From contig CAYVZB010000001.1 in NCBI GenBank assembly GCA_964456405.1, positions 24,601 to 88,600 on the forward strand: DNA of 64,000 bases, in the 5' to 3' direction. Shown one piece after another: positions 1-63,080 of the stretch (the stretch's first letter is position 1; each line of letters starts with the position of its first letter). Origin of the DNA: an uncultured Candidatus Saccharibacteria bacterium (lineage in GTDB: Bacteria > Patescibacteriota > Minisyncoccia > Phycocordibacterales > DATGWK01). The translations under genes and the position numbers were made by a program. The notes beneath the pieces are model-generated. The model searched no databases and was not told the origin of the DNA. It saw only the letters and a program-made list of their open reading frames with translations.

Positions 1-200
1 AAGTAAAGATTGAGGGTGACCTCAAGCGCGAGGTTGAAGCTAACGTCAAACGACTCCGAGACATCAAAGCATACCGTGGCACTCGCCACATGCGTGGTTT
101 GCCGTCACGTGGTCAGAGAACAAAGACAAATTCTCGAACTCGACGAGGTAACGTTCGTAAGACTATGGGTAGCGGTAAGAAGACCGTAGATAAGAAATAA
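1..200 (+). CDS. rpsM: 30S ribosomal protein S13, C-terminal part (5' end lies outside the window)
   Basis: Frame 3 translates to ...[44 protein letters not shown], the conserved S13 C-terminus. It sits directly upstream of rpsK, as in the canonical alpha-operon order. Confidence 0.85.
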
Positions 201-25056: not shown

Positions 25057-25780
25057 GGTCACAACAAGTTGGGATGATGGTGATATTCTCGACAAAAAAC
25101 TTGCCGATTTATTAACCCAATACGGCATTAAGGGCACCTTTTACATTACAAAAACATATCGACCCGAACGATTATCTGAATCTGAGATTAAAACTCTTTC
25201 TGAATCACATGAAGTCGGCGCACATACACTCACCCACCCTGATCTCCGGCTACTCGCAGTAGAAAAACTCCAAGAAGAAATTGGTGGCAGTAAAAAATGG
25301 CTCGAAGAAGTTACTCAAAAGCCCGTCACAATGTTTTGTTATACAAAAGGTCAGTACACACCTGAAGTTGCGAAAAAAGTCCAAGAAAACGGCTTTTGCG
25401 GCGCCAGAAGCACGATACTTGGGTCATTAATTTCTGGAAAAAAGTTCGATTTGGAAACCACTCTTCAGGTCTATCCCTTCCCTTTCAGAAAAATTGATAA
25501 GCATCGATATTATTTCAGAAAAATTCTTCAACCATATCTACAGCGAGCAAAAGGATTGCGAAAAACTGGAGTTCCAATCACTGCGATGCATTCTTGGCTC
25601 AGTTCTTCAAAAGCTGCGTTTGATTATGCTCTCAAACACGGCAGGGTGTTTCATGTGTGGGGGCATTCGTGGGAAATCGAGAAATATGGAATGTGGAATG
25701 AGCTTGAAAAGCTACTTCAATATATTTCAAAAAGACAAAACTGCGAGTATGTCGTAAACAGTGACTTGGTTAAGGAGTAG
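25049..25780 (+). CDS. polysaccharide deacetylase (NodB-homology) family protein
   Basis: 243 aa. TTSWDDGD (NodB motif 1) and HTLTHPDL (His motif 2). Confidence 0.75.
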   Translation: MLKVTTSWDDGDILDKKLADLLTQYGIKGTFYITKTYRPERLSESEIKTLSESHEVGAHTLTHPDLRLLAVEKLQEEIGGSKKWLEEVTQKPVTMFCYTKGQYTPEVAKKVQENGFCGARSTILGSLISGKKFDLETTLQVYPFPFRKIDKHRYYFRKILQPYLQRAKGLRKTGVPITAMHSWLSSSKAAFDYALKHGRVFHVWGHSWEIEKYGMWNELEKLLQYISKRQNCEYVVNSDLVKE

Positions 25781-27452
25781 AAATTCCTTTCTCTAATTCA
25801 TCTACAAGCCACGCACTGCCATTTTGATACGGATTTCCGAAATACCTCTTTTGTAAATCTAGTAATATTTCTTTTGACACATTTCGAACTGTCATAATTT
25901 TTGTTATTAGTTCGTCTGGATTCTCGGCAAAAAAGGTTCGATTTGAATCATATTCTCTAAGTGAATAGTAATCACCCCATTTATTTGAATTAAAGAAAAG
26001 CGGCATTTTTTCTTTAAGAAGCATTTCTAGTACAGCAGTGCTATGAGAGCCGACGGCGACTTCTGATTCTTCAATTGCCCGAACCAATCCACTTGTGGCA
26101 ATTTTTACCCTTGGATTCGATAGGATTTCTGGTCTGTTCTTTTCTATCCAATTTTTAAATCCATCACCAAATTGCCTGAAGGTAAAAAGAATTTCAACAT
26201 TGTCTTGTTCCAATAATTTTTCCAAGTATGGAATAACTTCTTCTGGAACGGCAAGTTGCTCGGAAACAAATAATACCTTTATTGGTCCGGTTTTTTCCAT
26301 TTCATGCAATGTGGTTACACCATCTTCTCTTTCAAGTGGTCGGATTGGCCCTGAGACAACAAGTTGATCAGACGTATAGGCAGCGCCATGCTTTAAATAG
26401 TATTCCTTCCACCAATCGCTCCAAACTCCGTATTTATCAAGAGACAACCGTTTGTCACCATCAAAACTCGGTAAAAAATCGTATCCATTGTAATATCGTG
26501 AAGCAACGCCGTGCAGAATACCAACCGTCTTAACTCTATTTAATTTTGCACCAATAACCGCTGGATAGTTTCTATCCAACGCCGCTGAAAAGTAAGCGGC
26601 TTTAATACCAATACCTTTGATAACCCAGGTTGAAATACGAATCGCCCAAATATCAGAATATACTGAGCGTAAGTAACTCGTTCCAATCAAAAGTTTAAAC
26701 TTGTAGTCAGGATCTGCTACATGGTCAAAATTTCCGACATCATATTTTCTTGAAAAAAAGCTTAATCCTTTAGAAATAAAAGCAACGGCTTCCGAATATA
26801 TCACTGGTCTACGTCTTGTTATTGCGTGTGATACAACTGTTTTCCACGAACTCAAACTGCGAATAAACTCGGCAAAGTACAAATTTCGTTTTCTCAATTC
26901 GGCATATACGAACCTCATACGAAAATCGAAATCCTTTCCGGGTTCAAACTTATCACCTGCGAACACGAGTATCGCTGGCCTTGTAATAATTAGAATTGGC
27001 AACGAGATAAGGGTAATGCAAATTTGTATCAAAATTCCAAACGGCAACAATTTTTCAGGTTTAAAATCCTTAATTATTTTTACCGAAATTCCATGTGCGG
27101 AAAGATAATGAATGAACAGTGGTTTGAAAGATGGCTTATACAGATCAACCGATGAGTACTGAGTCAGAGTATTAAGTAAGTTTTTGTACTGAGAAAGTGG
27201 CAACCCGAAATAATAAAATAAATCGTTGTAATGAATCCACCACAATTCAAAGCCTTTATACACGTAAGACTTCGAAAGTCGAAGTCCGTCTGGCAAAACA
27301 ACCTTAGGTAAAGATTCAACGAGTTCTGTCGCTTCATAAATACTTCCAGGTAATACAAAATCTTTTGCATGAAGTACTACATCATACTCTTTAGTATTGA
27401 TTGCTTCTGATCCACCATCAAAAATTACGAGTGCCTTGCCTTTTTTGCCCAT
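25770..27452 (-). CDS. putative GT-B fold glycosyl/glycerophospho-transferase (TagB/TagF-like capsule/teichoic-acid type)
   Basis: 560 aa from the ATG at 27452. The track's earlier start at 27482 would overlap the upstream gene by 29 nt. C-terminal GT-B like region (ILHGVASRYYNGYDFL..., VAVGSHSTAVLEML). No sharp motif. Confidence 0.35.
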   Translation of the reverse strand: MGKKGKALVIFDGGSEAINTKEYDVVLHAKDFVLPGSIYEATELVESLPKVVLPDGLRLSKSYVYKGFELWWIHYNDLFYYFGLPLSQYKNLLNTLTQYSSVDLYKPSFKPLFIHYLSAHGISVKIIKDFKPEKLLPFGILIQICITLISLPILIITRPAILVFAGDKFEPGKDFDFRMRFVYAELRKRNLYFAEFIRSLSSWKTVVSHAITRRRPVIYSEAVAFISKGLSFFSRKYDVGNFDHVADPDYKFKLLIGTSYLRSVYSDIWAIRISTWVIKGIGIKAAYFSAALDRNYPAVIGAKLNRVKTVGILHGVASRYYNGYDFLPSFDGDKRLSLDKYGVWSDWWKEYYLKHGAAYTSDQLVVSGPIRPLEREDGVTTLHEMEKTGPIKVLFVSEQLAVPEEVIPYLEKLLEQDNVEILFTFRQFGDGFKNWIEKNRPEILSNPRVKIATSGLVRAIEESEVAVGSHSTAVLEMLLKEKMPLFFNSNKWGDYYSLREYDSNRTFFAENPDELITKIMTVRNVSKEILLDLQKRYFGNPYQNGSAWLVDELEKGISTP

Positions 27453-27453
27453 A

Positions 27454-28383
27454 TTATTTTCTTGTAGACTCCTTAAGACCAATGATCAGATTATTTACTG
27501 TATTTTGATGTACAAAGTTCCATGCTTTTGGTCCTGAATTTGTATTATGCGGAGAAAGAATGACATTTTCCATAGTCCGAAGCGGACTGTCTTTTGGCAA
27601 AGGTTCATCCTCAAACACATCGAGTGCGGCACCAGCAATAATCTTATTTTGCAAGGCTTCGATTAAATCTTTTTCCACCACAACCGGTCCGCGCGAAGCA
27701 TTAATTAGGAATGCAGTTGGTTTCATCATAGCAAGTCGTTCCTTATTCATGAGTTGGCGACTCGTTGGGTTAAGATCGGTATTGAGACTTACGAAATCTG
27801 ATTCTTTGAGTAATTGTTCGAGGGCAACAAGATCAGTCGCGACTGGTTTGATATCACAAGCAATTACTTTCATACCAAAAGCCTCAGCTCGTTTTTTGAT
27901 TGCCTTTCCAACATTTCCAAGTCCAATGATTCCAAGGGTTCGTTCTTCCAATGTATATGTCATTCTTTTTGACCAAATACCCTGTCTCATTTCTCTATCG
28001 AGATTAATGATGTCACGAGCAAAACAAAGAATGTATCCAAGAACACTATCAGCAACAGGAATCGTAAACGCGTTCACGGTGTTTTTGATGAGAATATTAA
28101 ATTCTTTTGCCGCTACCTGATCGAGAGAATCGATACCAGTTCCCCATTTTGAAAGCACCTTAAGTTTTGGTGCATTTTCCATTACTTTTCGGGTCACTCG
28201 ATCATCACCACAAAGCATTCCATCGACATCCCCAATAATCTTTAGGAGTTCCTCTTCTGAAAGCCGTTCTTTGACTGGGGGAATAAACATTTCAATTCCC
28301 TCTTTTTCGAACTGATCTCGAAACTGTTCTGCAATAGGTTGGAAATAAGGAGCAGAAATGAGGGCCTTGTATTTGTATTTCAT
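27454..28383 (-). CDS. D-isomer-specific 2-hydroxyacid dehydrogenase (PGDH/GyaR-like)
   Basis: 309 aa. NAD-binding GLGNVGKAIKKRAEAFGMKV and catalytic-domain blocks (RGPVVVEKDLIEAL, the D-2-HDH His region SPHNT). Confidence 0.85.
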   Translation of the reverse strand: MKYKYKALISAPYFQPIAEQFRDQFEKEGIEMFIPPVKERLSEEELLKIIGDVDGMLCGDDRVTRKVMENAPKLKVLSKWGTGIDSLDQVAAKEFNILIKNTVNAFTIPVADSVLGYILCFARDIINLDREMRQGIWSKRMTYTLEERTLGIIGLGNVGKAIKKRAEAFGMKVIACDIKPVATDLVALEQLLKESDFVSLNTDLNPTSRQLMNKERLAMMKPTAFLINASRGPVVVEKDLIEALQNKIIAGAALDVFEDEPLPKDSPLRTMENVILSPHNTNSGPKAWNFVHQNTVNNLIIGLKESTRK

Positions 28384-28411
28384 ACCTGTATCTTAGCAAA
28401 AATAAGGGGTT

Positions 28412-28446
28412 TTAAAAGAAAAAACCGCCACATTGCTGTGGCGGTC
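28412..28446 (-). terminator. rho-independent terminator following the GC-rich cassette gene
   Basis: ccgccaca-ttgc-tgtggcgg stem. A-tract aaaagaaaaaa is on the + side, which gives a T-tract on the minus strand. Confidence 0.6.
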
Positions 28447-28485
28447 ACTAATGATGAAACCGAAGTTATTCGGTCGGTAGCAGTG

Positions 28486-28938
28486 CTACCTGGTCTCCGA
28501 CTCCTCGGTCGTATCCGGAAGGTACTTAAACCTCCAGATCGTGACGACGGTATCCCAAGGCGGCAATTCATCCTTGCCAACCGGACTGAGCGCAGCGAGG
28601 TAAAACCTCACGAGCTCCGGGGTCGCACAGTCGGGAGCGCAGCCGGCAAGATCATCCGGCGTGAGCTCCTCGATCTTCTTGGCGAAGCACTCCGTCCGTT
28701 CGAAGGTCAGACCCTCGTCGGGAACGAGGTTACCCGGCACTCCAACCTTCGGCTCGCCAAACCCCTCGATGAATCGGATCGCGAGGGGTTCGTTGGGCGG
28801 GATGTAGTTCACATGCCCTGGATCCGTGCGGTCGCCCTTGCGAACCACCGCCGTGATCTTCCTGCTGCGAAATCCTTCCATCGTCGACTTCCTGTTCCAG
28901 AAGCCACGATCTCCGTAAAGTCGACATCGATCAAGCAT
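28486..28938 (-). CDS. hypothetical protein encoded in a ~0.55 kb GC-rich insert (150 aa from the ATG at 28938; GTG alternative at 29004)
   Basis: Minus-strand ORF with a balanced, acidic composition. GGAGGG sits 4-5 nt upstream of the ATG at 28938. Local GC is far above the flanking genes. The overlapping + strand ORF is Arg-rich nonsense. Confidence 0.55.
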   Translation of the reverse strand: MLDRCRLYGDRGFWNRKSTMEGFRSRKITAVVRKGDRTDPGHVNYIPPNEPLAIRFIEGFGEPKVGVPGNLVPDEGLTFERTECFAKKIEELTPDDLAGCAPDCATPELVRFYLAALSPVGKDELPPWDTVVTIWRFKYLPDTTEESETR

Positions 28939-29035
28939 GATACCCTCCGCTATGAGAAAAAAACCTCCTAGACACAGCGAATTGCTGGTCTTTCTAGACG
29001 ACACTATAACAGATTAAACAATACTAGTCAATTAG

Positions 29036-29665
29036 TTACTTTTTGATCAAAATAGCTCGTACAGGAGCAGCTTCAAGGCCTATAAATTTAATAGGTAAGC
29101 AAAAGAGTTGGTATTCCCCTGTTTCAACTGCTTGTAAACTAATTCCTTCTAGGAGCGCAATGCCTTGTTCCAACAAAACCCTGTGCACGTCTGCAGCTTC
29201 ATCAAATTTTGCAATTGAAAGATAATCAACACCGATAAGCTTCATATCTCTTTTTGCTAACCACTCAGCACCACTGACAGAAATTCCAACATAATTTTTT
29301 GTAAATTCGTTCGTTGTACCCCACAGTTTTGAGTTTTTCGTTTTAAAAAGAATTCTTTGTGTTTGTTCTGGAATATTCAACTTTTCTAGTTCAGTTGCTC
29401 CAATTTCGTTTGCATTTGGCAATTCCACAACAAGAGAATCGCCAACAAATGTTTGAAGAGGTAATGCATCAATAGATTTTCCATTTTTAATAAAATGTTT
29501 TGGCGCATCGATATGCGTACCCGTATGCATACCCATTCGAATATTGCTGTCATTACACACGTCTCCCTTTTCTATACTTAGAAACTTAGGAAAATCTGGC
29601 CGAGCGGCTTTTGGCCAGACAGGAATTGAATCATCCACCGGAACTGAGATATCGATTATTTTCAT
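29036..29665 (-). CDS. cyclase-family protein (kynurenine formamidase / arylformamidase-like)
   Basis: 209 aa with HTGTHIDAPKHF, the metal-binding signature of the cyclase/KynB family. Confidence 0.8.
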   Translation of the reverse strand: MKIIDISVPVDDSIPVWPKAARPDFPKFLSIEKGDVCNDSNIRMGMHTGTHIDAPKHFIKNGKSIDALPLQTFVGDSLVVELPNANEIGATELEKLNIPEQTQRILFKTKNSKLWGTTNEFTKNYVGISVSGAEWLAKRDMKLIGVDYLSIAKFDEAADVHRVLLEQGIALLEGISLQAVETGEYQLFCLPIKFIGLEAAPVRAILIKK

Positions 29666-31518
29666 GGCTGAAGAATGATTTTAAACTTACTTCCCTCTCG
29701 AAGCAGATCCCAAGCTTTTTCAAAATCACTGAGAGGTAGTGTGTTTTCTAAAAATGGGTTCATATCAAGTTTTGGCATCATCTTAAGCGCAAGTTCAAAG
29801 TCCTCATCCTCTGCACCAACTGAACCAACAAAAACTTTTTCTAGCCCAACAAGATCTTCAAAATTGTAGCTAATATCTGCGTAAGGAAAGCCGAGGAGTA
29901 GTAGGGTTGCATCACCAGTACTACCGCGAAGAACAGCATTAAGTGCGTCGGCAGAACCAGTTGCCTCTATGATAAGTCTGAAGTGATCAATGTTTTCTAT
30001 TGTTGTAGATATTTTTTCAACTTTTTCCTCAAGAAGTTTGAGACGGTCAGGTCTTTTATCAAATACGGTTACCTTAAAACCCTCCAATGCGAGAACTTGT
30101 GCGGCAAAATTTCCAATTGGACCCGCGCCAACAATACCAATTTTTGCACCTGGAGTGAGACGACTCCTAACTCGTCGAATGCCACGAAGGACAACAGCGA
30201 GTGGCTCAGAAATCGCTGCGGTCTTTAGATCAATTTCCTTTGGTATGTGATGAATCGCATTACCTGGAACAATCACATACTTGCTATAAGCACCGTTGTG
30301 ATTAATCACACCGACCTCCTTTCGATCCTTCAATGAGCCTCGAGTAAGAATGCATTCTCCTACAACCCTATCTCCAACTTTGAAACGCTCGCGGAATTTA
30401 TTATTTGAGCCAACTCGCGCAATTGTTCCAGAAAATTCGTGACCGGGAATAATTGGATAATGCGCATAATGATCGCGATAGTACCCAAGTGTGCCTTCAA
30501 AAACCTCTAGATCGGTTCGACAAATACCAACATATGCAACCTGGATTAAAATATCGCCTGGACGCATTTCTGGTGCAGGAATTTCCTGATATCTGGCTTT
30601 CCCTTCTTTTTCAATAACAACAGCGTGGTTAACGCTCGGTAATGGGAAGTAGAGATTTTCTGTGTCCTTATCGATATCCAAACCTCGATCCTTGTACCAA
30701 CCTTGGCGACTTCCCTTCCACTGGTAGTAACGGAATCGAATAATTTCTTCGATACGATTAATAGAAAAATTCGGATACGAAGCAACAAGATCAGTACCGG
30801 TTCGCCATAGTAATGAGAAGTAACTCAACTTAACTTGAGGTGGATGAGCCATGCCAATACGAAATGCTGCGATTGCCTCTCGACGGTATCGGTTATAGAC
30901 CTGATGCCATTTTTCATTATGAATATGGTACACAACAGCACTCGGTTCATACACGACTTCAAACCCCTTACTACGTTGATGTTTTGCCCACTCAATATCT
31001 TCAAGACCAAACAGATTTTCATCAAACTGATGCTTTTCCCACAGCTCTTTTCTGATTGCTGAGTTTGCATTATTTGCAAAATCAAATGGTACACCCTTAT
31101 TAATTGGATGTTTTCCGAAAAGCCTTTTGAAATCTCTTTTTTCAGAGAACTTTGAGCTCACGTGGCCAACCTGTCTACCGTACAACATTGCAATCTTATT
31201 GTTCTTAAATCCATCAATGAGCTTTGAAACCCACCGCTCATCAACCGGCAAGACGTGTGCAGAAGCAAAAACAAGGTATTTTCCTTTTGCTTCTTTACAA
31301 CCAATATTCAATGCATATCCAAATGTAAAATCTCTGCTTTCAATTTTAAAAATTCTCGCTCCAAATTTTTCGGCAATTTCAAGTGTGCGGTCAGTAGATC
31401 CAGAATCAACAATGACCACTTCGAAGTTTTTATACTCTTGCTTCTTAACCGCTTCGAGTAAATTACCGAGATGTTTCTCTTCGTTATATGTGCGGATGAC
31501 AATACTAGTTTCAGGCAT
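29662..31518 (-). CDS. fusion protein: N-terminal family-2 glycosyltransferase, C-terminal Zn-dependent medium-chain dehydrogenase/reductase (sorbitol/threonine-DH-like)
   Basis: 618 aa. N-terminus IVIRTYNEEKHL...VVIVDSGSTDRT (GT2). C-terminus has GICRTDLEVFEG, PIIPGHEFSGTI (Zn-ADH signature) and GAGPIGNFAAQV (Rossmann). Confidence 0.75.
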   Translation of the reverse strand: MPETSIVIRTYNEEKHLGNLLEAVKKQEYKNFEVVIVDSGSTDRTLEIAEKFGARIFKIESRDFTFGYALNIGCKEAKGKYLVFASAHVLPVDERWVSKLIDGFKNNKIAMLYGRQVGHVSSKFSEKRDFKRLFGKHPINKGVPFDFANNANSAIRKELWEKHQFDENLFGLEDIEWAKHQRSKGFEVVYEPSAVVYHIHNEKWHQVYNRYRREAIAAFRIGMAHPPQVKLSYFSLLWRTGTDLVASYPNFSINRIEEIIRFRYYQWKGSRQGWYKDRGLDIDKDTENLYFPLPSVNHAVVIEKEGKARYQEIPAPEMRPGDILIQVAYVGICRTDLEVFEGTLGYYRDHYAHYPIIPGHEFSGTIARVGSNNKFRERFKVGDRVVGECILTRGSLKDRKEVGVINHNGAYSKYVIVPGNAIHHIPKEIDLKTAAISEPLAVVLRGIRRVRSRLTPGAKIGIVGAGPIGNFAAQVLALEGFKVTVFDKRPDRLKLLEEKVEKISTTIENIDHFRLIIEATGSADALNAVLRGSTGDATLLLLGFPYADISYNFEDLVGLEKVFVGSVGAEDEDFELALKMMPKLDMNPFLENTLPLSDFEKAWDLLREGSKFKIILQP

Positions 31519-32296
31519 ACGTCTTTACAAGTGGGTCGGTCGCCATTTTTGCATCAACTTTTTTCAAATCTTCCGGAGTATCAACGCTGTATGTTTCAAA
31601 TTCTTCGTAGACCATTTTTACCTTGTGTCCCTTTTCAAGAACTCGAAGCATGTCGATAGATTCGATACCTTCGAGTAACGTTCTGCCCCACATATTAAAT
31701 TGCTCCAGAAAATCTCGCCTAAATGGAATGACGCAAACCTGCTTGTACATTGGGATTGAATCGCCTTTGAATTTTTTCCAAGACGGAATCGGTTCGCGAG
31801 ACATGTATATAGCAAAATTTTGTTCGTCGACAACCACCTTTGGACAATTCATGTCGTTGTGCTCTTCTCGGCTTCGGATTGGTGCCATCAAATTTAAAAC
31901 TTCAATCGAATCATCTTCAAGCATTGGCTTTACTGCCATATCAATCATTTCTGGAACAATCATTGGCTCATCACCTTGAAGCATCACGACGATGTCAGTC
32001 TTTTGCCTGGTTTCCTTTTCTACTTTTAAAATAACTTCAGCAGTGATATCAGAACAACCGGGATGGTCATTTCGACCAATCACTGCTTTTGCTCCAATAG
32101 ATTCTGCATATTTCTTGATAACTTTATCAGGAGTAGCAATATACACTTCATCAAGCATTTTGCTCATTTTGGCTCGTTTATAGCAGTGACCAATCATCGG
32201 CATACCCTGGATCATTTCCATAGGTTTACCAGGATAACGAGATGAACCCATTCGAGCTGGAATAATGCCTATAATATTGAGTTTTTTGGTGCTCAT
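31511..32296 (-). CDS. sugar-nucleotide cytidylyltransferase (KdsB / acylneuraminate cytidylyltransferase family)
   Basis: 261 aa. IGIIPARMGSSRYPGKP N-terminal nucleotide-binding motif, typical of CMP-Kdo and CMP-NeuAc synthetases. Confidence 0.7.
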   Translation of the reverse strand: MSTKKLNIIGIIPARMGSSRYPGKPMEMIQGMPMIGHCYKRAKMSKMLDEVYIATPDKVIKKYAESIGAKAVIGRNDHPGCSDITAEVILKVEKETRQKTDIVVMLQGDEPMIVPEMIDMAVKPMLEDDSIEVLNLMAPIRSREEHNDMNCPKVVVDEQNFAIYMSREPIPSWKKFKGDSIPMYKQVCVIPFRRDFLEQFNMWGRTLLEGIESIDMLRVLEKGHKVKMVYEEFETYSVDTPEDLKKVDAKMATDPLVKTYA

Positions 32297-56899: not shown

Positions 56900-56941
56900 A
56901 TTGCAGGATCGTACACACAAACATCAACATGGAGGTGAGGG

Positions 56942-57274
56942 ATGGTTGCATCTGCAAAAAGTCGGAGGGAACCGAGTCTTGAAATTCAGAGGTTGGCGGA
57001 CAAAGCCGCAGAACTGTACCGCAAAGACAAGCTCGAAGGCCGGGAGGCAGAACGCTTCAGCGATTATGCCAGAAAAGTTCTGGAGAAGGCTGGCCTTCTG
57101 ACCGACGAGAGGGTCTCGATGATCACCCGGATTCTCGGCCGACGTGGTGGCAGGATGACGCAGAAACTTGTCCGGGCTGGAGTGATCCAACCCCAACGGA
57201 CACTCAGGCCAACACGCACGACGCCCCGTTTCAGTGAATTCCTTTTCAACCCCAACGGCAGTCGAGTTCTCTGA
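56942..57274 (+). CDS. hypothetical protein (110 aa, GC-rich, Arg/Lys-rich)
   Basis: Own promoter, strong RBS and a downstream terminator. Its GC content is well above the neighbours. It lies immediately upstream of tRNA-Glu and the recombinase. Confidence 0.55.
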   Translation: MVASAKSRREPSLEIQRLADKAAELYRKDKLEGREAERFSDYARKVLEKAGLLTDERVSMITRILGRRGGRMTQKLVRAGVIQPQRTLRPTRTTPRFSEFLFNPNGSRVL

Positions 57275-57294
57275 CACCGGGCGCACAAGCCCAT

Positions 57295-57324
57295 GGAGCG
57301 GTGACATAACCGCTCCTTTTTTAT
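57295..57324 (+). terminator. rho-independent terminator
   Basis: ggagcgg-tgacataa-ccgctcc followed by tttttta. Confidence 0.65.
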
Positions 57325-57361: not shown

Positions 57362-57433
57362 GGCCCTATCGTCTAACGGTTAGGACAGTGCCTTCTCAAG
57401 GCATAAATCGGGGTTCGATTCCCCGTAGGGTCA
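57362..57433 (+). tRNA. tRNA-Glu (anticodon CUC)
   Basis: 72 nt cloverleaf folded by hand. Acceptor ggcccta/tagggtc, D-arm gtct/ggac, anticodon stem gtgcc/ggcat with loop ttCTCaa, T-arm cgggg-ttcgatt-ccccg, discriminator A. No encoded CCA. Confidence 0.8.
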
Positions 57434-57468
57434 CAACTAAGGCCGATGCGGAGGCCTAGAAATAAACC

Positions 57469-57707: not shown

Positions 57708-59027
57708 CTATTCCAAACCTAACTTTTTGTCCCTTAATAGTATTCTGCTCTTGATACAACTTAGTATTTCTCGTTTTTGAAGCATCGTACCATGTCGTAG
57801 CATATGTTTGGCAAATGTTTTTATGGAGATATCTTTGTGTTTTTTTGACTGATTTAAATCAATCCCAAGCACCCCGCTCTGAAATAAAGCATACCTCGCT
57901 ACTTCCTCTTCCAGTTTCTTTTTCAGCTCGCTCTTGTCCATGCTCATCTTGTCGATGATCAGCATAACTTCGTCTATGAGTATCGATTCCTTGACCGATT
58001 CGTTCTGGCATTCTCGGTTCTTCACTTTCGTACATCGGTAGTAGACGTGGGTGTTCGAGCCCCCATCTTTCAGCTCTTTTATCTTTTCTTCCGCCGTTAT
58101 GCCCGACTCGCAGTAGGCGCAGTGAAGCATTCTCGTGAATGCGAACTCTCTACCGTACGCCTTCTTTTTCTCGACTTTTATTTTTTCCTGTACTGCTTCA
58201 AATAATTCTCTCGATATGATCGGCGTGTGTTTGCCTGTGTACCATTCGCCGCTATCCTCAGGGTATTCGAACACTCCGTAATAGAAGGTCATTCTAAGTA
58301 TTCGATATATGTTGCCAAGTGTGACATATTTCCCATTCTTATTCTTGAAATCGATTTCCTTGAGCCATTTGTATATTTTTCGGCCAGAATAATTTTCGTT
58401 TGCCACTTTCTCAAACATTTCCTTGATGATTGGTGCTCTCTTTGAATCCACGATCACTTGGCATTTTTCATCCTTATTCTTGCTATTAAGGTAGCCAGTC
58501 GGTGCCATCGACGGCCGAAGTCCCATGGCCGCCCTCGTTCGCAATCCTCGCTTTACGTTGATCACCTTGTTGTCGTTTTCAAGCTTTGCCTGTGATCCGA
58601 GAATCATCAGCATGAACTTGTCGTTCGGCGTGTTCGTAAATTTCTGCCCGTAGGTTCGTATCTCGATGAGTTTTTTCTGGTCCATCAAGTCCACAACTCT
58701 GCCGAGGTCGCCTGCGTTTCGGGCGATTCGGTCTGGTGCCCATGTAAGAATGCCATTGTATTTTCCTTGCTTGAGTTCCTCCACGATCTCGTTGAAGACT
58801 GGCCGCTGTCCGGCTTCCTTCGCTGAGTGAGATTCTTTCTTCGTGACCACGATTTCTAATCCATCAGCAACTGCCATTTTCTCCATTTCTTTAATTTGAG
58901 AGTCGATAGATAGAACTTGCTTATCCTCTTGTTCCGTACTTTTTCTGGCGTAAAGGCAGTACGAAAGCCTTACGGGGCTTGCTGGTTTGGCCGTAGCCCC
59001 AGACGGCGCTGTGGTTGCATATGTCAT
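57708..59027 (-). CDS. large serine recombinase (resolvase N-domain, recombinase domain and zinc ribbon); the track start at 59084 is less likely
   Basis: LYARKSTEQ catalytic-Ser motif, DRIARN, a recombinase-domain block and a C-terminal CAYCESG...YYRCTK zinc ribbon. About 440 aa. Confidence 0.8.
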   Translation of the reverse strand: MTYATTAPSGATAKPASPVRLSYCLYARKSTEQEDKQVLSIDSQIKEMEKMAVADGLEIVVTKKESHSAKEAGQRPVFNEIVEELKQGKYNGILTWAPDRIARNAGDLGRVVDLMDQKKLIEIRTYGQKFTNTPNDKFMLMILGSQAKLENDNKVINVKRGLRTRAAMGLRPSMAPTGYLNSKNKDEKCQVIVDSKRAPIIKEMFEKVANENYSGRKIYKWLKEIDFKNKNGKYVTLGNIYRILRMTFYYGVFEYPEDSGEWYTGKHTPIISRELFEAVQEKIKVEKKKAYGREFAFTRMLHCAYCESGITAEEKIKELKDGGSNTHVYYRCTKVKNRECQNESVKESILIDEVMLIIDKMSMDKSELKKKLEEEVARYALFQSGVLGIDLNQSKKHKDISIKTFAKHMLRHGTMLQKREILSCIKSRILLRDKKLGLE

Positions 59028-59135
59028 ACATACACATTGATGACACAACCCCTCCGGGGAGTCCAGGCTCCCCAGAGTTAGCAACTATTTCTCCAAATAT
59101 TCAAATATACTTACGATCCGTATAGAATCGCCCGA

Positions 59136-60397
59136 GGTGCAAACGGTTTTGGGTGGCCACTTAACCACATAAAACAATGAATAAAATGTTAACTTATAGT
59201 CAGTACCTTAAACGAACAAAAGAATTGAAGACTCCGGAGGATGTTGCTGCATTCGCGCAGGAGTTAATCGCTCCTTTTGTTGGAAATGTAGTCAAAGAAG
59301 AGCCTGTTTCTGTGAGCGAAGAAGCCGCCGGTAGCTTGGCGGCTTCTATTGAGGAAACTCCCGCACCTGTAAAACAGAAATATAATCGCAGGAATCCGTA
59401 CGCGATCGAGCAGGTCAATCCGTGGCACGATGTCGCAAGTAACGAGACTGAGCTCATGGTAATTGATCTCTATGCAAAAGGTCTCACCACTCGAGACATT
59501 GTGAATCACTTAAAACGCAGTCATGGCATCGAACTATCACAACCAACAATCTCAAACATCACCGATAAGGTATTTCCTTTGGTGAAAGAATGGCAGTCGC
59601 GAGCGCTCTCGTCATGCTACCCAATATTGTACCTCGATGGCATGCACTTTAAGGTACGCGAGGCAGGCAAGATTGCTTCCAAGGTGGCATATATTGCTCT
59701 GGGCATAAATCAGTTTGGGCAAAAGGAAGTTCTCGGTATGTGGATTAGCGAGACTGAGGGCGCAAAATTCTGGATGCACGTCTTGAATGACCTCAAGAAT
59801 CGCGGTGTGGATGATATTCTCATTGCCTGCGTTGATGGTCTCAAAGGATTCCCGGAAGCAATCAAAGCAATGTATCCACACACAGACGTTCAAGTATGTA
59901 TCGTTCACCAGATCAGGCATACGGTCATGTTTATCGCAACAAAGGATAAGGACCAATTCTGCATTGAACTTAAATCTGTTTACAACGCTCCAAGTGAACA
60001 AGCGGGACTCGATGCACTTAAAGACATGATGGAACGATGGCCGCAGTATCGGGCATATCTCAAAAGTTGGGAGACGCGATGGTCTGATATCGCTCCGTTC
60101 TTCAGCTATCCGCAGTCAGTTCGTAAGACGGTCTACACCACAAATGCGATTGAAAACTTAAATCGCCAATTCAGAAAGGTAACAAAGACAACCCAAATCT
60201 TTCCTCATGATGACGCACTACTGAAATTGCTCTGGCTCGCCCAAGCTGATCTCACACAGAAATGGGTTCTCGGGACACGTAATTGGTCGGAAGTTATGGC
60301 ACAACTTAGCATCATGTTCCCAGACCGCGTTCACTTCTAGTCACTAAACAAATCAGAAAAATTAATTAACGTGGCGCATTCAAAAACGTTTAGCACC
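59136..60397 (+). mobile_element. IS256-family insertion sequence (~1.26 kb)
   Basis: Imperfect terminal inverted repeats GGTGCAAACGGTTTTGGGTGGCCAC (59136-59160) and the reverse complement of 60371-60397 (GGTGCTAAACGTTTTTGAATGCGCCAC), flanking one transposase gene. No clear target-site duplication. Confidence 0.6.
59177..60340 (+). CDS. IS256-family (Mutator-type) transposase
   Basis: 387 aa. YLDGMHFKVR, IACVDGLKGFPEAI and CIVHQIRH blocks are typical of the IS256 DDE transposase. Confidence 0.85.
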   Translation: MNKMLTYSQYLKRTKELKTPEDVAAFAQELIAPFVGNVVKEEPVSVSEEAAGSLAASIEETPAPVKQKYNRRNPYAIEQVNPWHDVASNETELMVIDLYAKGLTTRDIVNHLKRSHGIELSQPTISNITDKVFPLVKEWQSRALSSCYPILYLDGMHFKVREAGKIASKVAYIALGINQFGQKEVLGMWISETEGAKFWMHVLNDLKNRGVDDILIACVDGLKGFPEAIKAMYPHTDVQVCIVHQIRHTVMFIATKDKDQFCIELKSVYNAPSEQAGLDALKDMMERWPQYRAYLKSWETRWSDIAPFFSYPQSVRKTVYTTNAIENLNRQFRKVTKTTQIFPHDDALLKLLWLAQADLTQKWVLGTRNWSEVMAQLSIMFPDRVHF

Positions 60398-60531
60398 TGG
60401 CAAAAAATCGTGGCCTAGAGCTGCGGTTTTTTGTTTTAATATAAAAATCGGGATAATTGACATGTGTATTTTTTTACTATATGGTATTGACCAGACAGTT
60501 ATTTCATAACACAATTCACAAGGAGTCAGAA

Positions 60532-61512
60532 ATGACTATTCTCGATGCGATGCAAACCGTTCTAAAAAGTGGCTGCGGAATTTCGTTCGAGGAAGCAGTC
60601 CGCTCGGAGCGGTATGCTGAGCTCGAGTCTCAATTCAAGTCTCTGCCCAAGTGTTTTCCAGCCAGAACCCATCGGGGTATCGCTCTACGCGCTGGTCATC
60701 TACAAATGGGTCGCCTTCTCAACACAACAAGTGAGAGGGGGGCGATCAAGCTTCCTCGGTCCGTTCAGTCAGAATTTGGTCGCGGTCAAGCAATGGCGCC
60801 GCTCGTCCAATTGGTGGGCGAGTGTCTCGTCAAAGCCGCGGCTGAGTGCCTACCGGATGACGTGGTTGCTTTGGCCAAGGAATGGCGTGAAGCTGATGTC
60901 GATCGTCAGATCGAAATTGCTCGGACGCTTTTCTTCAGATTCAACTCTGAAGGCCAGCGTCACGACGAGGAGTTTCATCTGGACACAGTGACTCAGAACA
61001 TCAGCAAAAGGATTTTGATGAACGAGCACGCGAGTGAGAGAATTTTGCCGAAGCAGTTTGGGATGTGGGATCCAAAAACCTGCATTGCCAACTGCCAGGG
61101 CAAGACTCAAATGCTCACTGCGTTCGGCCGGCTTGCCGGAACCGATGTTCTCGCTGTTAGTCCGCTCACGACCGCACATGAGGTCGTCGAGGGCTGGCGA
61201 TCGATCGTGGCAGACAGAATCCGCGAAGACTTGGCTCAAAGGAAGATCGAATTCCCCGAGCCGGTTTTCATGGACAGTCTGAAAGCCTACGAAATCGACA
61301 AGGTGTTCAGTGATTTCGATTCACACTTTCACGTCGGCGCGGCTCTGAAGCTGCGAGATGGACGGTGGGTGCTGATCGATTCGCACGCGATGAGTTGGGG
61401 CGTGTTTACCCCCGACTGGCATCTTGAGAGAATCGTTGGCTTGCTTGATAAGTACGGAGTGGTTCTTCCAGGCATTCATTTACTTGGTCACAGCTACGAA
61501 GCTCGTGACTAA
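60532..61512 (+). CDS. hypothetical protein with a possible transglutaminase-like Cys-His-Asp core
   Basis: 326 aa from the ATG at 60532, with AAGGAG 6 nt upstream. ANCQGKTQMLTAFGRLAG (Cys), HVGAALKLRDGRWVLIDSH (His...Asp) spacing resembles the transglutaminase-like cysteine protease superfamily. GC-rich. Confidence 0.5.
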   Translation: MTILDAMQTVLKSGCGISFEEAVRSERYAELESQFKSLPKCFPARTHRGIALRAGHLQMGRLLNTTSERGAIKLPRSVQSEFGRGQAMAPLVQLVGECLVKAAAECLPDDVVALAKEWREADVDRQIEIARTLFFRFNSEGQRHDEEFHLDTVTQNISKRILMNEHASERILPKQFGMWDPKTCIANCQGKTQMLTAFGRLAGTDVLAVSPLTTAHEVVEGWRSIVADRIREDLAQRKIEFPEPVFMDSLKAYEIDKVFSDFDSHFHVGAALKLRDGRWVLIDSHAMSWGVFTPDWHLERIVGLLDKYGVVLPGIHLLGHSYEARD

Positions 61513-61515
61513 CAC

Positions 61516-62154
61516 TTGAAGGTCATTACCGCAAAGGTTGATGACCTCTTGGCTCACTCCCGAAAACTTGAGCAGCTCACGGCTTCGGTCAAGTCGGTTC
61601 CCAATTTGCTCGAAGTCTTCGCCACAAGCGGCGAAGCACTCTACATCGCAAACGCTACGCGAGGCGAGTCGGAACCAGTCAGTGATACTCCGGGTGGCGA
61701 GGTGTCTCGATTCGTGGCAACAAAAATGATCGCGGGTGAGTCAGCGGCGGAGACAGTGCGATTTGTCGCACTGTCAAAGACCGACCCAACCCTGATCCGA
61801 AAGAAAATTGGGTCGATCCTCACGTTCTACCACGCTCTAGCAATGGAGTGTGCAAAGAATCAGTTGACTGACGCGGGCAAGTTAATTCATCCGGAGTGTG
61901 AATTCGCTTTGGCTGAGTACAACATTGCCGTGTCGGCAATCAACTCGATCATTCCGGAGACCACAATCGAAAGTCAGCACTTCTTCCTCAACTACACCTT
62001 CAACCAGATGAGTCTCTTCAATTCGCTTAGTGAGTTCCGACCGAAGTCTTGGAGAGACAATGATCCCAAGATTGCGATCGCTGCGGCACAGGCCTTGGAG
62101 GTCATGCCGTTTGTCCATCCGCTTGCGCAACGCGCCTTGCGGTTTGTCCGCTAG
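61516..62154 (+). CDS. hypothetical protein (212 aa, apparent TTG start, translationally coupled to the upstream gene)
   Basis: Long GC-rich ORF beginning 4 nt after the upstream stop. No family motif recognised. Confidence 0.45.
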   Translation: MKVITAKVDDLLAHSRKLEQLTASVKSVPNLLEVFATSGEALYIANATRGESEPVSDTPGGEVSRFVATKMIAGESAAETVRFVALSKTDPTLIRKKIGSILTFYHALAMECAKNQLTDAGKLIHPECEFALAEYNIAVSAINSIIPETTIESQHFFLNYTFNQMSLFNSLSEFRPKSWRDNDPKIAIAAAQALEVMPFVHPLAQRALRFVR

Positions 62155-62183
62155 TCAGTCTGACAAAAGAAAGGAGGTAAAAA

Positions 62184-62423
62184 ATGATGAAAGATCCAGA
62201 AAAACTTTCTCCAGGCGCTCGTGAGATTGCTGACAAGCTCGGGCTTAACGGAGATGTTGCTGAATACATTCAGAAACATCCCGAGTCCATCGGCTCTCTC
62301 AACGAGTACATCGAATGGCGAGAGCATGAAAAGGTCGCTGTTAGCCAAACGGCGGCTGTGCCAAGCATCAAACATCCTCTCGTCGATGCTCTCAAGAAGA
62401 GAGTCTCGGCTGTCCCCATGTGA
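62184..62423 (+). CDS. hypothetical small protein (79 aa)
   Basis: AAAGGAGG sits 6 nt upstream of the ATG, and a strong terminator lies at 62428-62464. Confidence 0.55.
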   Translation: MMKDPEKLSPGAREIADKLGLNGDVAEYIQKHPESIGSLNEYIEWREHEKVAVSQTAAVPSIKHPLVDALKKRVSAVPM

Positions 62424-62427
62424 ATCG

Positions 62428-62464
62428 TGAACCGCAGGTCTTCGGGCTTGCGGTTTTTTTATTT
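62428..62464 (+). terminator. rho-independent terminator ending the GC-rich cargo operon
   Basis: aaccgca-ggtcttcgggc-ttgcggtt followed by ttttttt. Confidence 0.6.
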
Positions 62465-62468
62465 ATAT

Positions 62469-62508
62469 AAAAGAAAACCGCCCCTCAACGTTGTCGCGGA
62501 AGGGCGGA
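62469..62508 (-). terminator. candidate terminator for the convergent minus-strand gene
   Basis: ccgccc...gggcgg stem with an inner caacgttg palindrome. An A-tract on the + side gives a T-tract on the minus strand. Confidence 0.45.
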
Positions 62509-62525
62509 TTGTGTTCGTTGCCGAG

Positions 62526-62936
62526 TTACGCCCGGCTGAACATCCTGTTCGCGTTCATCATGCTGTCCTCGTACGGATCAGCGATACGGAAGAACAGCTC
62601 GGAACTGTGGATGGACTCGCCGTTGGAGCAAGGCACGAATGTGCTCTTGTTCTCATCGACGCGCAGTCCCAGCTCCTGCTCCATGAAGACACGCAGGTCC
62701 TTCCAGGTTGTCTGGACACAGCGGCCAAGCCAGACCTGGCAGTCCGGGAAGACCATGACGATCATCCCGTTGTTGGCGTTCCACTTGCCAGCGTCCTGGT
62801 AGCTCCCCTGAATGGGGGCAGACTCGCTCCTTGCCGAGCCTTGATCCTTGTAGGCCGTGAGGCCGGTGACATGAACGAACCCGAACATCCGAAGTTTATT
62901 CAGATGTTCCATCGACAGTTTCTGAAACGCGGTCAT
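62526..62936 (-). CDS. hypothetical protein (136 aa from the ATG at 62936; the track start at 62981 is a TTG)
   Basis: GGAG sits 8 nt upstream of the ATG at 62936. GC-rich. The overlapping + strand ORF 62427-63071 runs across two terminators and is rejected. Confidence 0.45.
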   Translation of the reverse strand: MTAFQKLSMEHLNKLRMFGFVHVTGLTAYKDQGSARSESAPIQGSYQDAGKWNANNGMIVMVFPDCQVWLGRCVQTTWKDLRVFMEQELGLRVDENKSTFVPCSNGESIHSSELFFRIADPYEDSMMNANRMFSRA

Positions 62937-63080
62937 AAAAAGAACTCCAAAAGTGGATGCCCGTTGGTACTCCAGCGACAAAGTGTCGTTGCAAGCCCAT
63001 TGGTACTTCCTGCGATATTATGCATCAGGTTGGTTTTTAAGTCAATCCCACGTAATGCTTCAATCGCCTAGTGGTAAAAT

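Follow-up and report, generated by a model that had tools for sequence, protein, structure and literature searches.

Is a single GC-rich gene inside an operon of lower GC content a recent arrival or an old resident, and what keeps it GC-rich? The question is raised by a 150-aa open reading frame (ORF) that lies in an operon of surface-glycan genes from a member of the Saccharibacteria (Patescibacteria). The initial annotation of the window, i.e. of the whole stretch of 64,000 nucleotides that was analysed, interpreted this ORF as a foreign cassette recently acquired from a high-GC donor. Under the amelioration model of Lawrence and Ochman, transferred genes are said to converge to the composition of their host once the synonymous sites are saturated.

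Results

The GC-rich segment is a protein-coding gene

The GC content of the locus is not uniform. In 400-nt windows it amounts to 0.57-0.58 over positions 28400-28999 and to 0.35-0.42 on either side, which confirms the GC-rich segment that had been noticed before. The ORF itself has 59% GC as compared to ~39% in the surrounding operon. Codon usage shows the same difference: the GC3 of the ORF (Table 1) contrasts with values of 0.22-0.47 for all other real genes in the first 56 kb of the window. G/C-ending codons of every kind are enriched, rather than one codon class, and rare codons are used. The anomaly is confined to the ORF and its terminator; the promoter and the leader are AT-rich.

The start codon at 28938 is backed by a conserved MLDR N-terminus and by a GGAGGG at 28943-28948. 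In the first 15 codons the GC3 goes down to 0.48, which fits the expectation for a translated ORF, and dN/dS of the gene is 0.10-0.27. The product, which the initial annotation had called acidic, has a pI of 5.15 and is hence mildly so. The GC-rich insert is a real, self-contained protein-coding gene.

Table 1. Features of the GC-rich unit and of its operon, in positions of the window.
Feature	Position	Strand	Remarks
GT-B-fold enzyme of ~560-590 aa, recurrent partner	25770..27452	(-)	no Pfam family; TagF/TarL- and NeuC-like fold
D-2-hydroxyacid dehydrogenase, downstream neighbour	27454..28383	(-)	Pfam PF02826/PF00389
Whole 656-nt unit, absent from sister genome L029 (6 nt there)	28385..29040	(-)	exact blastn collinearity break; alignment; L029 gene map
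Putative restart extended -10 TGCTAAGAT	28390..28398	(-)	6 nt upstream of dehydrogenase ATG (28383)
Intrinsic terminator	28413..28446	(-)	GC-rich 10-bp stem (28446-28423), 4-nt loop, T-run; from sequence
CDS, 150-aa ASCH/PUA-like-fold protein (P0001)	28486..28938	(-)	GC 0.594, GC3 0.73
~60-nt 5' leader	28939..29002	(-)	Shine-Dalgarno GGAGGG at 28943-28948; sequence read
Sigma-70-type promoter TTGACT-17-TATAGT with TG extended -10	29003..29031	(-)	10/12 matches, TG present
Cyclase/arylformamidase-like hydrolase, upstream neighbour	29036..29665	(-)	Pfam PF04199; NCBIfam arylformamidase below cutoff
KdsB-family cytidylyltransferase	31511..32296	(-)	NCBIfam NF009905, 283.6 bits vs cutoff 255; Pfam CTP_transf_3

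The gene carries its own expression signals

The signals around the gene recur in its orthologs. The promoter pattern TTGACN-16..18-TANNNT is found upstream of 13/14 orthologs as compared to 7/146 control ORFs. A strong GGAGG/AGGAG ribosome-binding site precedes 11 of the 14; in the remaining three its place is taken by GAGGT or by a less strong site that resembles AGGAG. A hairpin plus T-run follows 9/14 orthologs under a strict filter and the others by eye; among the controls it follows 16/146. In the window (W) and at the loci L007, L009, L017, L021, L024 and L026, the next gene is preceded at a distance of 6-37 nt by an extended -10 or by a full promoter. In L015 the gene is on the strand opposite to the neighbouring genes. 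Further upstream, the leader in the window also has an AGGAGG with a T-run behind it (28959-28969).

The initial annotation had described the GGAGGG and the hairpin with its T-tract, and both are present. Its statement that the neighbours lack such signals holds broadly: the flanking operon genes overlap or abut, and only the few controls given above have such a promoter or terminator. It had missed the near-consensus sigma-70 promoter and the restart extended -10. Taken together, these elements would make up an autonomous transcription unit with promoter, strong ribosome-binding site, 150-aa ORF, intrinsic terminator and a restart promoter for the downstream genes; it would be nested within the surface-glycan operon and expressed independently of it. 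From its position, the restart -10 probably re-initiates transcription of the downstream genes past the terminator of the cassette. Such a design, terminator plus restart promoter, would allow an accessory unit to be nested without polarity.

Other GC-rich patches, at 56.9 and 60.5-64 kb, had been named as similar. The patches are real but unrelated to the gene: they belong to an island with a tRNA-Glu, a serine recombinase and an IS256, which is 28 kb away from it. The window contains no second copy of the gene, near these patches, near the IS256 or elsewhere. The only Rfam match in the whole window, and with a permissive threshold near 56-57.7 kb, was tRNA-Glu.

The protein belongs to a small ASCH/PUA-like family

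The 150-aa protein has a PUA-like/ASCH beta-barrel fold and is the founding member of a small, hitherto unrecognised family of this fold without the catalytic motif. The family comprises 14 clusters among 5.8e9 proteins, and 86 profile matches among 1.84e9. All 14 known relatives are on Patescibacteria-type contigs and, wherever the flank suffices, in glycan loci. In agreement with the initial annotation, which recognised no family, neither Pfam nor NCBIfam matched the protein at E ≤ 0.1-1, ASCH (PF04266) included. The ASCH profile matched 0/48 members of the wider family, sequence searches of the PDB returned no ASCH chain, and hhalign against Escherichia coli YqfB gave a probability of 0.04. 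Searches of PHROGs and PADLOC yielded nothing meaningful. Weak matches to eS19 at E 0.015 were judged to be due to chance. In the PDB, the profile of the wider alignment (A2) matched mostly through its fused shikimate-dehydrogenase portion and told nothing about the ASCH-like domain. A homolog search from a distant member (P0032) returned only itself but gave access to its genomic context.

ASCH enzymes have an octapeptide, GxKxx(E/T)xR, in which the Lys and the Glu/Thr are essential (PMC6972931; bioRxiv 10.64898/2026.02.27.708502). A search with the expression GxKxx[ETSD]xR found it in the positive control YqfB but in none of the core (0/14) or wider (0/85) members. The corresponding strand has the sequence I-[TS]-x-V-V-R-x-G-D-R, in which the sole Lys (K27) is not conserved. 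The 14-member alignment has a signature of its own: W-x-R, I[TS]xVVRxGDR, PD[DE]G, SPD...TPELVRYHL and VVTIW. In size the protein is similar to ASCH proteins, e.g. the N4-acetylcytidine amidohydrolase YqfB (9kyf/1te7), the Lactobacillus crispatus protein (3s9x) and EF3133 (1t62). It differs from them in the missing Pfam match and octapeptide, in its own signature, and in a genomic context of glycan biosynthesis instead of RNA or nucleoside metabolism.

The genomic context points to a Kdo-type pathway

A recurrent neighbour of the gene is the GT-B-fold enzyme, which in most lineages is encoded directly downstream or one gene further. With >385 clusters, this partner family is much larger than the ASCH-like family with its 14. 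The position of the cyclase is variable, being taken in other lineages by an SGL lactonase-like or an inositol-phosphatase-like gene.

The operon also includes the KdsB-family cytidylyltransferase, which from its sequence is predicted to supply the cytidylyl-activated donor of the operon. The linkage of the ASCH-like gene to this enzyme and to sugar-acid enzymes is conserved. A CTP_transf_3 gene is located a few genes away in the window/L001, L004, L006/L007, L009, L012 and L015. In L033 the order is kdsB-kdsA-SIS-homolog-Hydrolase_3-AroE-like, and a distant homolog is translationally coupled between kdsD-like and kdsC-like genes, beside a true kdsA. In the wider family the domain is fused to Shikimate_DH (AroE-like) in five cases and to SKI (AroK-like kinase) in one. 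The fold of the GT-B partner resembles that of enzymes using CDP- or CMP-activated donors (TagF/TarL-type, NeuC-like).

The operon of the window thus resembles Kdo/CMP-Kdo operons (kdsA, kdsB, kdsC, kdsD) in its KdsB-family gene, which scores above the NCBIfam cutoff. It contains no kdsA, kdsC or kdsD; there are 2-hydroxyacid and Zn-ADH dehydrogenases and a cyclase-family hydrolase instead. Because kdsA is missing, the label Kdo-type refers in the window to the KdsB-family match alone, and the product of the pathway is probably a sugar other than Kdo. An ASCH-like component is not part of the canonical Kdo pathway. LPS synthesis is not known from Patescibacteria, and a search of the literature for GC-rich genes or for Kdo in this phylum gave nothing of direct relevance. 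The family appears to be functionally tied to the biosynthesis or transfer of a cytidylyl-activated Kdo-type sugar acid. From context and fusions, the protein may be a ligand-binding or tailoring accessory of this pathway, and it possibly recognises a cytidine-nucleotide or ulosonic-acid moiety; the known ligand of ASCH proteins is a cytidine derivative, which would fit.

The gene is probably old at this junction

The closest relative that was found is L029, the flanking proteins of which are 73-96% identical to those of the window. Here the cyclase and dehydrogenase genes are 4 nt apart (TAA-TAAT-ATG) and there is no insert. The description as a discrete cassette that interrupts a tightly coupled operon is therefore correct. 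Two outgroup Saccharibacteria, L004 and L032, have an ortholog at the identical cyclase/dehydrogenase junction. These orthologs have 71-76% aa identity, with dS ~2 between W and L004, and this divergence equals that of the flanking genes. The same junction and the flank-like divergence make ancestral presence, with a loss in L029, the more parsimonious reading.

The same relationship holds on a wider scale. Across the Patescibacteria, orthologs are found in operons of this kind, their identity tracks that of the neighbouring genes, and the gene co-diverges with its GT-B partner (r = 0.72). A few identity pairs are discordant, e.g. L009-L020 with 0.58 vs 0.74. At the L004 junction there are four stand-alone units in a row. 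Neither integrase nor transposase genes flank the gene or occur within the operon, and the alignment shows no target-site duplication or repeats at the junctions; thus the mobility genes, tRNA or repeats that would border a recent genomic islet are missing. No homolog from a high-GC donor, a phage or a plasmid was found among the 5.8e9 and 1.84e9 proteins, and there were no relatives among the viral loci of IMG/VR and no PHROG match. Phylogenetic incongruence, an identifiable donor and a decay of the composition towards the host were likewise not found.

The empty site in the sister genome and the ratio of 14 to >385 clusters mean that many losses, or some horizontal spread, must be assumed. 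The initial annotation had named conservation in place, with a housekeeping function, as evidence against its proposal. The gene is conserved in place in L004 and L032; it is accessory and not housekeeping. The common ancestor of several Saccharibacteria probably had the unit at this junction already, and some descendants, such as L029, then lost it. A recent import from a high-GC donor is not supported.

The GC-richness is kept in spite of turnover

At every locus examined the gene has 52-64% GC, in hosts of 37-53% GC. The gene mean is 0.571±0.030 and that of the hosts 0.441±0.039, with hardly any correlation between the two (r = 0.12); in the lowest-GC hosts the copy is as GC-rich as any. 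Identity at fourfold sites is near the random expectation, i.e. saturated, and fourfold G+C is still 0.60-0.83. Synonymous sites have 54-84% G+C despite their complete turnover.

The gene and its flanks differ in substitutions from G/C to A/T (S→W). Synonymous S→W fixations number 27/374 in the gene, and for flanking genes from the same genomes the count is 153/962 (OR 0.41, p = 1.6e-5), where the polarised counts are small and from overlapping trios, and a less-overlapping subset gives p = 0.045. The suppression is seen in situ within a clade of 41-42% GC. W→S rates are similar for gene and flanks, and the implied equilibrium GC3 is 0.62 vs 0.45. The GC-richness is probably kept because synonymous G/C→A/T changes are preferentially rejected. 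In absolute numbers S→W still exceeds W→S, and the GC-richness may be slowly eroding. Translational selection on codon bias was ruled out as a cause: the ribosomal-protein, rpoA and dnaK genes of the window have a GC3 of 0.29-0.35, so that the GC3 of the ASCH-like gene does not reflect host-optimal codon use.

The mRNA folds more strongly than expected from its codons. Relative to synonymous-codon permutations the mean folding z is -2.36 in 13 orthologs (7 at ≤ -2) and -0.44 in six neighbour-gene controls (MWU p = 0.018). The excess is stronger in lower-GC hosts and is missing in 4-5 of the 13; for the whole transcript of the window gene, z = -5.7. A conserved secondary structure or covariation was not found among the orthologs: the RNAalifold consensus is only -15 kcal/mol, and its covariation term is positive, i.e. 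unfavourable. These data suggest that the GC-richness is a maintained property of the gene, held by selection at the nucleotide level. The likeliest cause would be that selection favours a globally stable or compactly folded mRNA, in a transcript that stands alone and is strongly expressed.

Discussion

The best explanation, and in our view a probable one, is that the gene is an ancient, independently transcribed, ASCH-like accessory of a Kdo-type pathway whose composition is held by nucleotide-level selection. Like other compositional islands it has an atypical GC content and codon usage limited to one gene, and a patchy distribution. These features, the rare codons, the self-contained signals, the clean empty site in L029 and the sporadic occurrence relative to the GT-B family could also be explained by a foreign cassette from a high-GC donor, which has not yet ameliorated. 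This interpretation is largely refuted and very improbable. It is at odds with the orthologs of L004 and L032, and with a composition that is host-independent, contrary to the amelioration model, and is kept with saturated synonymous sites even in hosts of 37-42% GC. For such an import one would expect more S→W fixation than in the flanks, but the rate is about half of theirs. Donor homologs, viral contigs included, and traces of integration at the junctions are missing as well. A mobile cassette that circulates among glycan operons of Patescibacteria, e.g. by homologous recombination via the conserved flanks, is unlikely; its composition would reflect a higher-GC reservoir in this phylum and not selection. 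Phage morons are transcription units of their own that have been inserted between the genes of an operon (Cumby, Davidson and Maxwell 2012, PMC3594210), and the unit conforms to this descriptive definition with its own promoter and terminator, its deviant GC and its presence or absence at one position between genes that are adjacent in a relative. The accumulation of units at the L004 junction, the patchy occurrence, the discordant identity pairs and the small anomaly in hosts of 47-53% GC also fit. Unlike a moron, however, the unit is not in a phage or prophage and has no phage association; its flanks are chromosomal glycan genes, with which, as with the partner, it co-diverges overall. No sign of recent transfer is seen, since all major lineages are saturated at fourfold sites relative to each other. 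The gene's GC is independent of host GC even in higher-GC hosts, copies in the lowest-GC hosts are not poorer in GC, and S→W changes are suppressed in situ; the difference in composition is maintained and not a transient sign of transfer. The putative restart promoter, which would preserve downstream expression, is a further difference.

GC-biased gene conversion, or some local peculiarity of mutation at a hotspot of recombination or transcription, would need no selection on function. The gene is a conserved island in a hypervariable glycan locus, a setting in which crossovers could become concentrated; the enrichment extends to all G/C-ending codons, and the implied equilibrium GC3 is raised. 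Yet GT2-ADH and 2-Hacid_dh, flanking genes that are equally conserved (93-94% between W and L029), lack the high GC, the anomaly stops at the ORF and terminator, W→S rates are not raised as gene conversion predicts, and other highly transcribed genes are low in GC3, all of which makes this account quite improbable. It is very improbable that the composition is due to a second product, be it a non-coding RNA with a structure or the product of a gene that overlaps the ORF or runs antisense to it. A GC content independent of the host is typical of structural RNAs, several orthologs have a strong folding excess, and a full-length antisense ORF (210 aa, 28339-28971) is open in W, L004 and L015. There is, however, no Rfam family, the consensus structure is weak with unfavourable covariation, and there is no conservation at fourfold sites. 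Stops in the antisense frame in L007, L009, L012 and L014 led to the rejection of an overlapping or antisense gene; since the frame is open only without TTA, CTA and TCA codons, an open frame is expected from the composition. It is also conceivable, albeit unlikely, that the composition itself is under strong phylum-wide selection and that the GC-rich mRNA with its unusually tight folding, or the GC-rich DNA block between promoter, terminator and restart promoter, is functional beyond coding. Candidate functions are an exceptionally long-lived transcript, which sustains a glycan-pathway factor in slow-growing epibionts, or a transcriptional insulator that splits the operon; in a wilder variant the codon usage would be tuned to translation outside the normal tRNA regime of the host. 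If any of these composition-locked versions is true, synonymous-site selection beats AT mutation pressure in symbionts with tiny genomes, and this selection goes together with a new family of the ASCH fold whose members recognise cytidylyl-sugars.

The persistence of a GC-rich gene in many AT-rich genomes is unusual for a protein-coding gene. The results overturn the way in which a compositional island is read by default: one gene may look foreign for very long, with saturated synonymous sites and in several Patescibacteria lineages, and nevertheless be an old resident. This bears on methods for the detection of horizontal gene transfer and on the strength of synonymous-site selection in symbionts with reduced genomes. 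The findings also point to the surface-glycan biosynthesis genes of Saccharibacteria and other CPR bacteria, the cell-surface chemistry of which is largely unknown, including an unannotated GT-B family of >385 clusters. The new ASCH/PUA-fold family, which is very small, is not covered by a Pfam model and has conserved motifs of its own, provides a lead to a missing component of a Kdo-type pathway.

A GC-rich transcription unit in the glycan operon

The ASCH-like gene differs in composition from the surface-glycan operon in which it lies. The mean GC of the window is 41%; in 400-nt windows the GC is 0.57-0.58 across 28400-28999 and 0.35-0.42 on either flank. All remaining genuine genes in the first 56 kb have a GC3 of 0.22-0.47. 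The initial annotation described a GC-rich unit with its own ribosome-binding site and terminator; both signals are present, and the case is somewhat stronger than it was made, since a near-consensus promoter, absent from that annotation, precedes the gene. This strong promoter is conserved, being found upstream of 13/14 orthologs versus 7/146 controls; the gene also has a strong Shine-Dalgarno sequence and a terminator. Five contigs, assembled independently, encode an identical protein in unchanged gene order, which excludes an assembly artefact.

Positions of the features discussed, in window coordinates
Feature	Position	Strand	Description
GT-B-fold partner gene	25770-27452	-	~560-590 aa family
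Extended -10	28390-28398		TGCTAAGAT; 6 nt before dehydrogenase ATG (next gene)
Terminator of ASCH-like gene	28446-28413		3' of stop; 10-bp GC-rich hairpin and T-run
ASCH-like ORF	28486-28938	-	150 aa; GC 0.594, GC3 0.73
Ribosome-binding site			GGAGGG, 4-5 nt 5' of ASCH-like gene ATG
Leader hairpin region	28959-28990	-	CAGCAATTCGCTG, then AGGAGG and T-run
Promoter of ASCH-like gene	29031-29003		TTGACT-17-TATAGT, near-consensus, extended -10 TG
GT2-Zn-ADH fusion	29662-31518	-	618 aa; unusual; N-terminal GT2 glycosyltransferase, C-terminal Zn-dependent alcohol/threonine-dehydrogenase-like domain
ORF upstream of tRNA-Glu	56924-57307	-	127 aa; GC 0.57; GC1/GC2/GC3 0.60/0.51/0.59, atypical for coding
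tRNA-Glu(CTC)	57362-57434
Large serine recombinase	57708-59084	-
IS256/Mutator-family transposase	59177-60340	+
Three GC-rich ORFs	60457-63071	+	GC 0.52-0.53

The small hairpin, AGGAGG and T-run in the 5' leader lie upstream of the real ribosome-binding site and are a possible leader or attenuator feature; in three loci of other genomes (L016-L018) the leader is longer and has duplicated GGAGGTG-like elements. The gaps equivalent to window 28384-28422 in six further loci (L007, L009, L017, L021, L024, L026) contain an extended -10 or a full promoter. There and in the window this element lies directly past the cassette terminator, 6-37 nt from the next start codon, which implies that the downstream glycan genes have leaderless or very short-leader transcripts.

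A small protein family without the ASCH sequence motif

A search of 5.8 billion proteins returned 14 clusters in total, all unnamed and without Pfam domains, which are 45-76% identical and share an MLDR start and many invariant residues. Close pairs have a dN/dS of 0.10-0.27, and the GC3 falls to 0.48 over the first 15 codons, a pattern of translated genes. Judged from its sequence, the ORF is a true protein-coding gene. Across 1.84 billion representatives, an exhaustive profile search brought up just 86 relatives.

By sequence, the protein does not qualify as a member of the ASCH family. It matched no Pfam or NCBIfam model, none of 48 wider-family members matched ASCH, and hhalign against YqfB (sequence checked against 1te7) gave a probability of 0.04. 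The octapeptide GxKxx(E/T)xR, in which Lys and Glu/Thr are essential for catalysis (PMC6972931; bioRxiv 10.64898/2026.02.27.708502), occurs in 0/14 core and 0/85 wider family members. The protein represents a new sequence family with a known (ASCH) fold.

The unit is old at its junction

The initial annotation proposed a cassette that was recently acquired from a high-GC donor. A search with the partner protein provided a sample of loci independent of the ASCH-like gene. In the closest relative, L029, which is collinear with the window to either side (flanking proteins 73-96% identical, nucleotide identity ~82%), only TAAT separates the cyclase and dehydrogenase genes; 656 nt of the window (28385-29040) correspond to 6 nt, and the segment is therefore a discrete unit. 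By their flanking genes the window and L029 are sisters (94%, 2-Hacid_dh and ADH part), with L004 and L032 as outgroups (71-81%). In each outgroup the gene is found at this junction, with 71-76% identity, as for the flanks. A single loss in L029 is a more parsimonious account than three insertions at one position. Pairwise identities of the ASCH-like and partner proteins are correlated (Pearson 0.72; 45 pairs, ten lineages), and neither mobility genes nor repeats nor viral relatives were found for the unit. Some lateral movement of promoter-terminator units among related operons may nevertheless have occurred. The partner family comprises >385 clusters versus 14, which marks the ASCH-like gene as a patchily distributed accessory, and the cyclase/dehydrogenase junction of L004 (Ca. 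Saccharibacteria CAZBJL010000001.1, 8811-11208), a hotspot for nested accessory genes, holds four stand-alone units (YdjM-like (-), an 86-aa ORF, the ASCH-like gene and a 172-aa ORF), each with a near-consensus promoter and terminator. The ASCH-like unit is the sole strongly GC-rich one of these four. The proposal is hence partly supported: the architecture is moron-like and cassette-like, but the unit is neither recent nor from a detectable high-GC donor.

The other GC-rich patches that had been likened to it are real at 57.4-63 kb, but that region contains neither a copy nor a relative of the gene. The segment 57362-63071 looks like a conventional tRNA-adjacent integrated mobile island and is probably foreign; its three GC-rich ORFs had no Pfam, PHROG or PADLOC match. 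The ORF just upstream of the tRNA, without a protein family or Rfam match, may be a non-gene, an unrecognised RNA or the island border.

GC-richness is conserved and maintained

The gene has a GC of 52-64% in 14/14 lineages examined (mean 0.571 ± 0.030); the GC of the host loci is 37-53% (0.441 ± 0.039), and the two are uncorrelated (r = 0.12). It is the lone compositional outlier in almost all loci; one further outlier was seen, an HpcH/HpaI-family aldolase gene in another locus with the ASCH-like gene (L012 185-961(-); GC 0.59, GC3 0.73, above its contig). Between major lineages, fourfold-degenerate sites have reached saturation (identity 0.20-0.45 versus 0.23-0.36 expected by composition; dS ~2 between the window and L004) and are still 60-83% G+C. 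Three trios of close relatives served to polarise synonymous third-position changes, with flanking genes from these genomes as the comparison set. G/C->A/T fixations were depleted in the gene (27/374 versus 153/962; odds ratio 0.41, p = 1.6e-5; less-overlapping subset p = 0.045), whereas A/T->G/C rates were alike (15/128 versus 191/1480); the implied equilibrium GC3 is ~0.62 for the gene and 0.45 for the flanks. A distant homolog in a Kdo operon (~55% GC context) has the composition of its neighbours, which assigns the anomaly to the stand-alone Patescibacteria branch. The anomaly is a long-lasting, unusual compositional signature, both conserved and maintained.

Host-optimal codon usage does not account for it: the preferred codons (ACG, CCG, TCG, GCG, AAG, CTC/CTG) are those least used by the host, and ribosomal-protein, rpoA and dnaK genes of the window have a GC3 of 0.29-0.35. 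A known RNA family and a conserved overlapping or antisense ORF were also tested and rejected, as was a conserved RNA structure (consensus -15 kcal/mol, unfavourable covariation term). Against permutations preserving protein and codon set, the folding z averaged -2.36 over 13 orthologs (7/13 at <= -2; window -4.05) and -0.44 in six neighbour-gene controls (Mann-Whitney p = 0.018); the excess tends to be stronger with lower host GC (rho 0.55, p = 0.05). The whole transcript has a z of -5.7 versus dinucleotide shuffles. Together with the conserved promoter, Shine-Dalgarno sequence and terminator, this makes selection favouring a stand-alone mRNA that is compact, stable and strongly expressed the best-supported, albeit unproven, explanation; as alternatives, gBGC and a higher-GC reservoir are weaker.

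Link to Kdo-type pathways

The named loci with relatives come from Ca. Saccharibacteria, Ca. Kaiserbacteria and other Patescibacteria. In every locus with enough flank, the gene lies in the same type of glycan operon, with this order: a KdsB-family cytidylyltransferase (window copy 283.6 bits versus cutoff 255, NF009905), a D-2-hydroxyacid dehydrogenase, the GT2-Zn-ADH fusion, a variable small hydrolase (cyclase, SGL or inositol-phosphatase type), the ASCH-like gene and the partner. The fusion is kept in the window/L001, L004, L009, L012 and L029. The large, unannotated partner family, which has no Pfam or NCBIfam model, is widespread in Patescibacteria (Zambryskibacteria, Pacebacteria, others); its predicted fold is GT-B, akin to NeuC/UDP-GlcNAc 2-epimerases and TagF/TarL polymerases, and it is probably the transferase or polymerase for the cytidylyl-activated sugar.

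Among distant relatives of the ASCH-like protein, five are fused to shikimate-dehydrogenase-like (AroE-like, both domain orders) enzymes and one to a shikimate-kinase-like (AroK-like) enzyme (P0056, P0058, P0064, P0073, P0083, P0066). A stand-alone distant member, P0032 (X), is translationally coupled in kdsB - kdsA - SIS (kdsD-like) - X - Hydrolase_3 (kdsC-like) - AroE-like (L033 279-4390; kdsA 371.7 bits versus cutoff 242). The fusions and this operon suggest an uncharacterised Kdo-modification module. With the KdsB-linked operons they tie the family, through guilt by association and by fusion, to Kdo-type, cytidylyl-activated sugar-acid pathways as a putative accessory. In the operon of the window kdsA, kdsC and kdsD are missing, and its sugar is therefore probably not Kdo but a relative of it.

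The gene is an autonomous transcription unit for a constrained ASCH-fold protein, with conserved linkage to KdsB-family and GT-B genes. Its separate promoter would allow the level of the protein to be set apart from that of the operon; the terminator would divide the operon, and the extended -10 past it would, as a restart promoter, recover expression of the dehydrogenase and GT-B genes from near-leaderless transcripts. In the activated sugar of the pathway, the protein itself may bind or process the cytidine-nucleotide or the ulosonic-acid moiety and possibly pass it to tailoring dehydrogenases or kinases, which would explain the AroE-like and AroK-like fusions.
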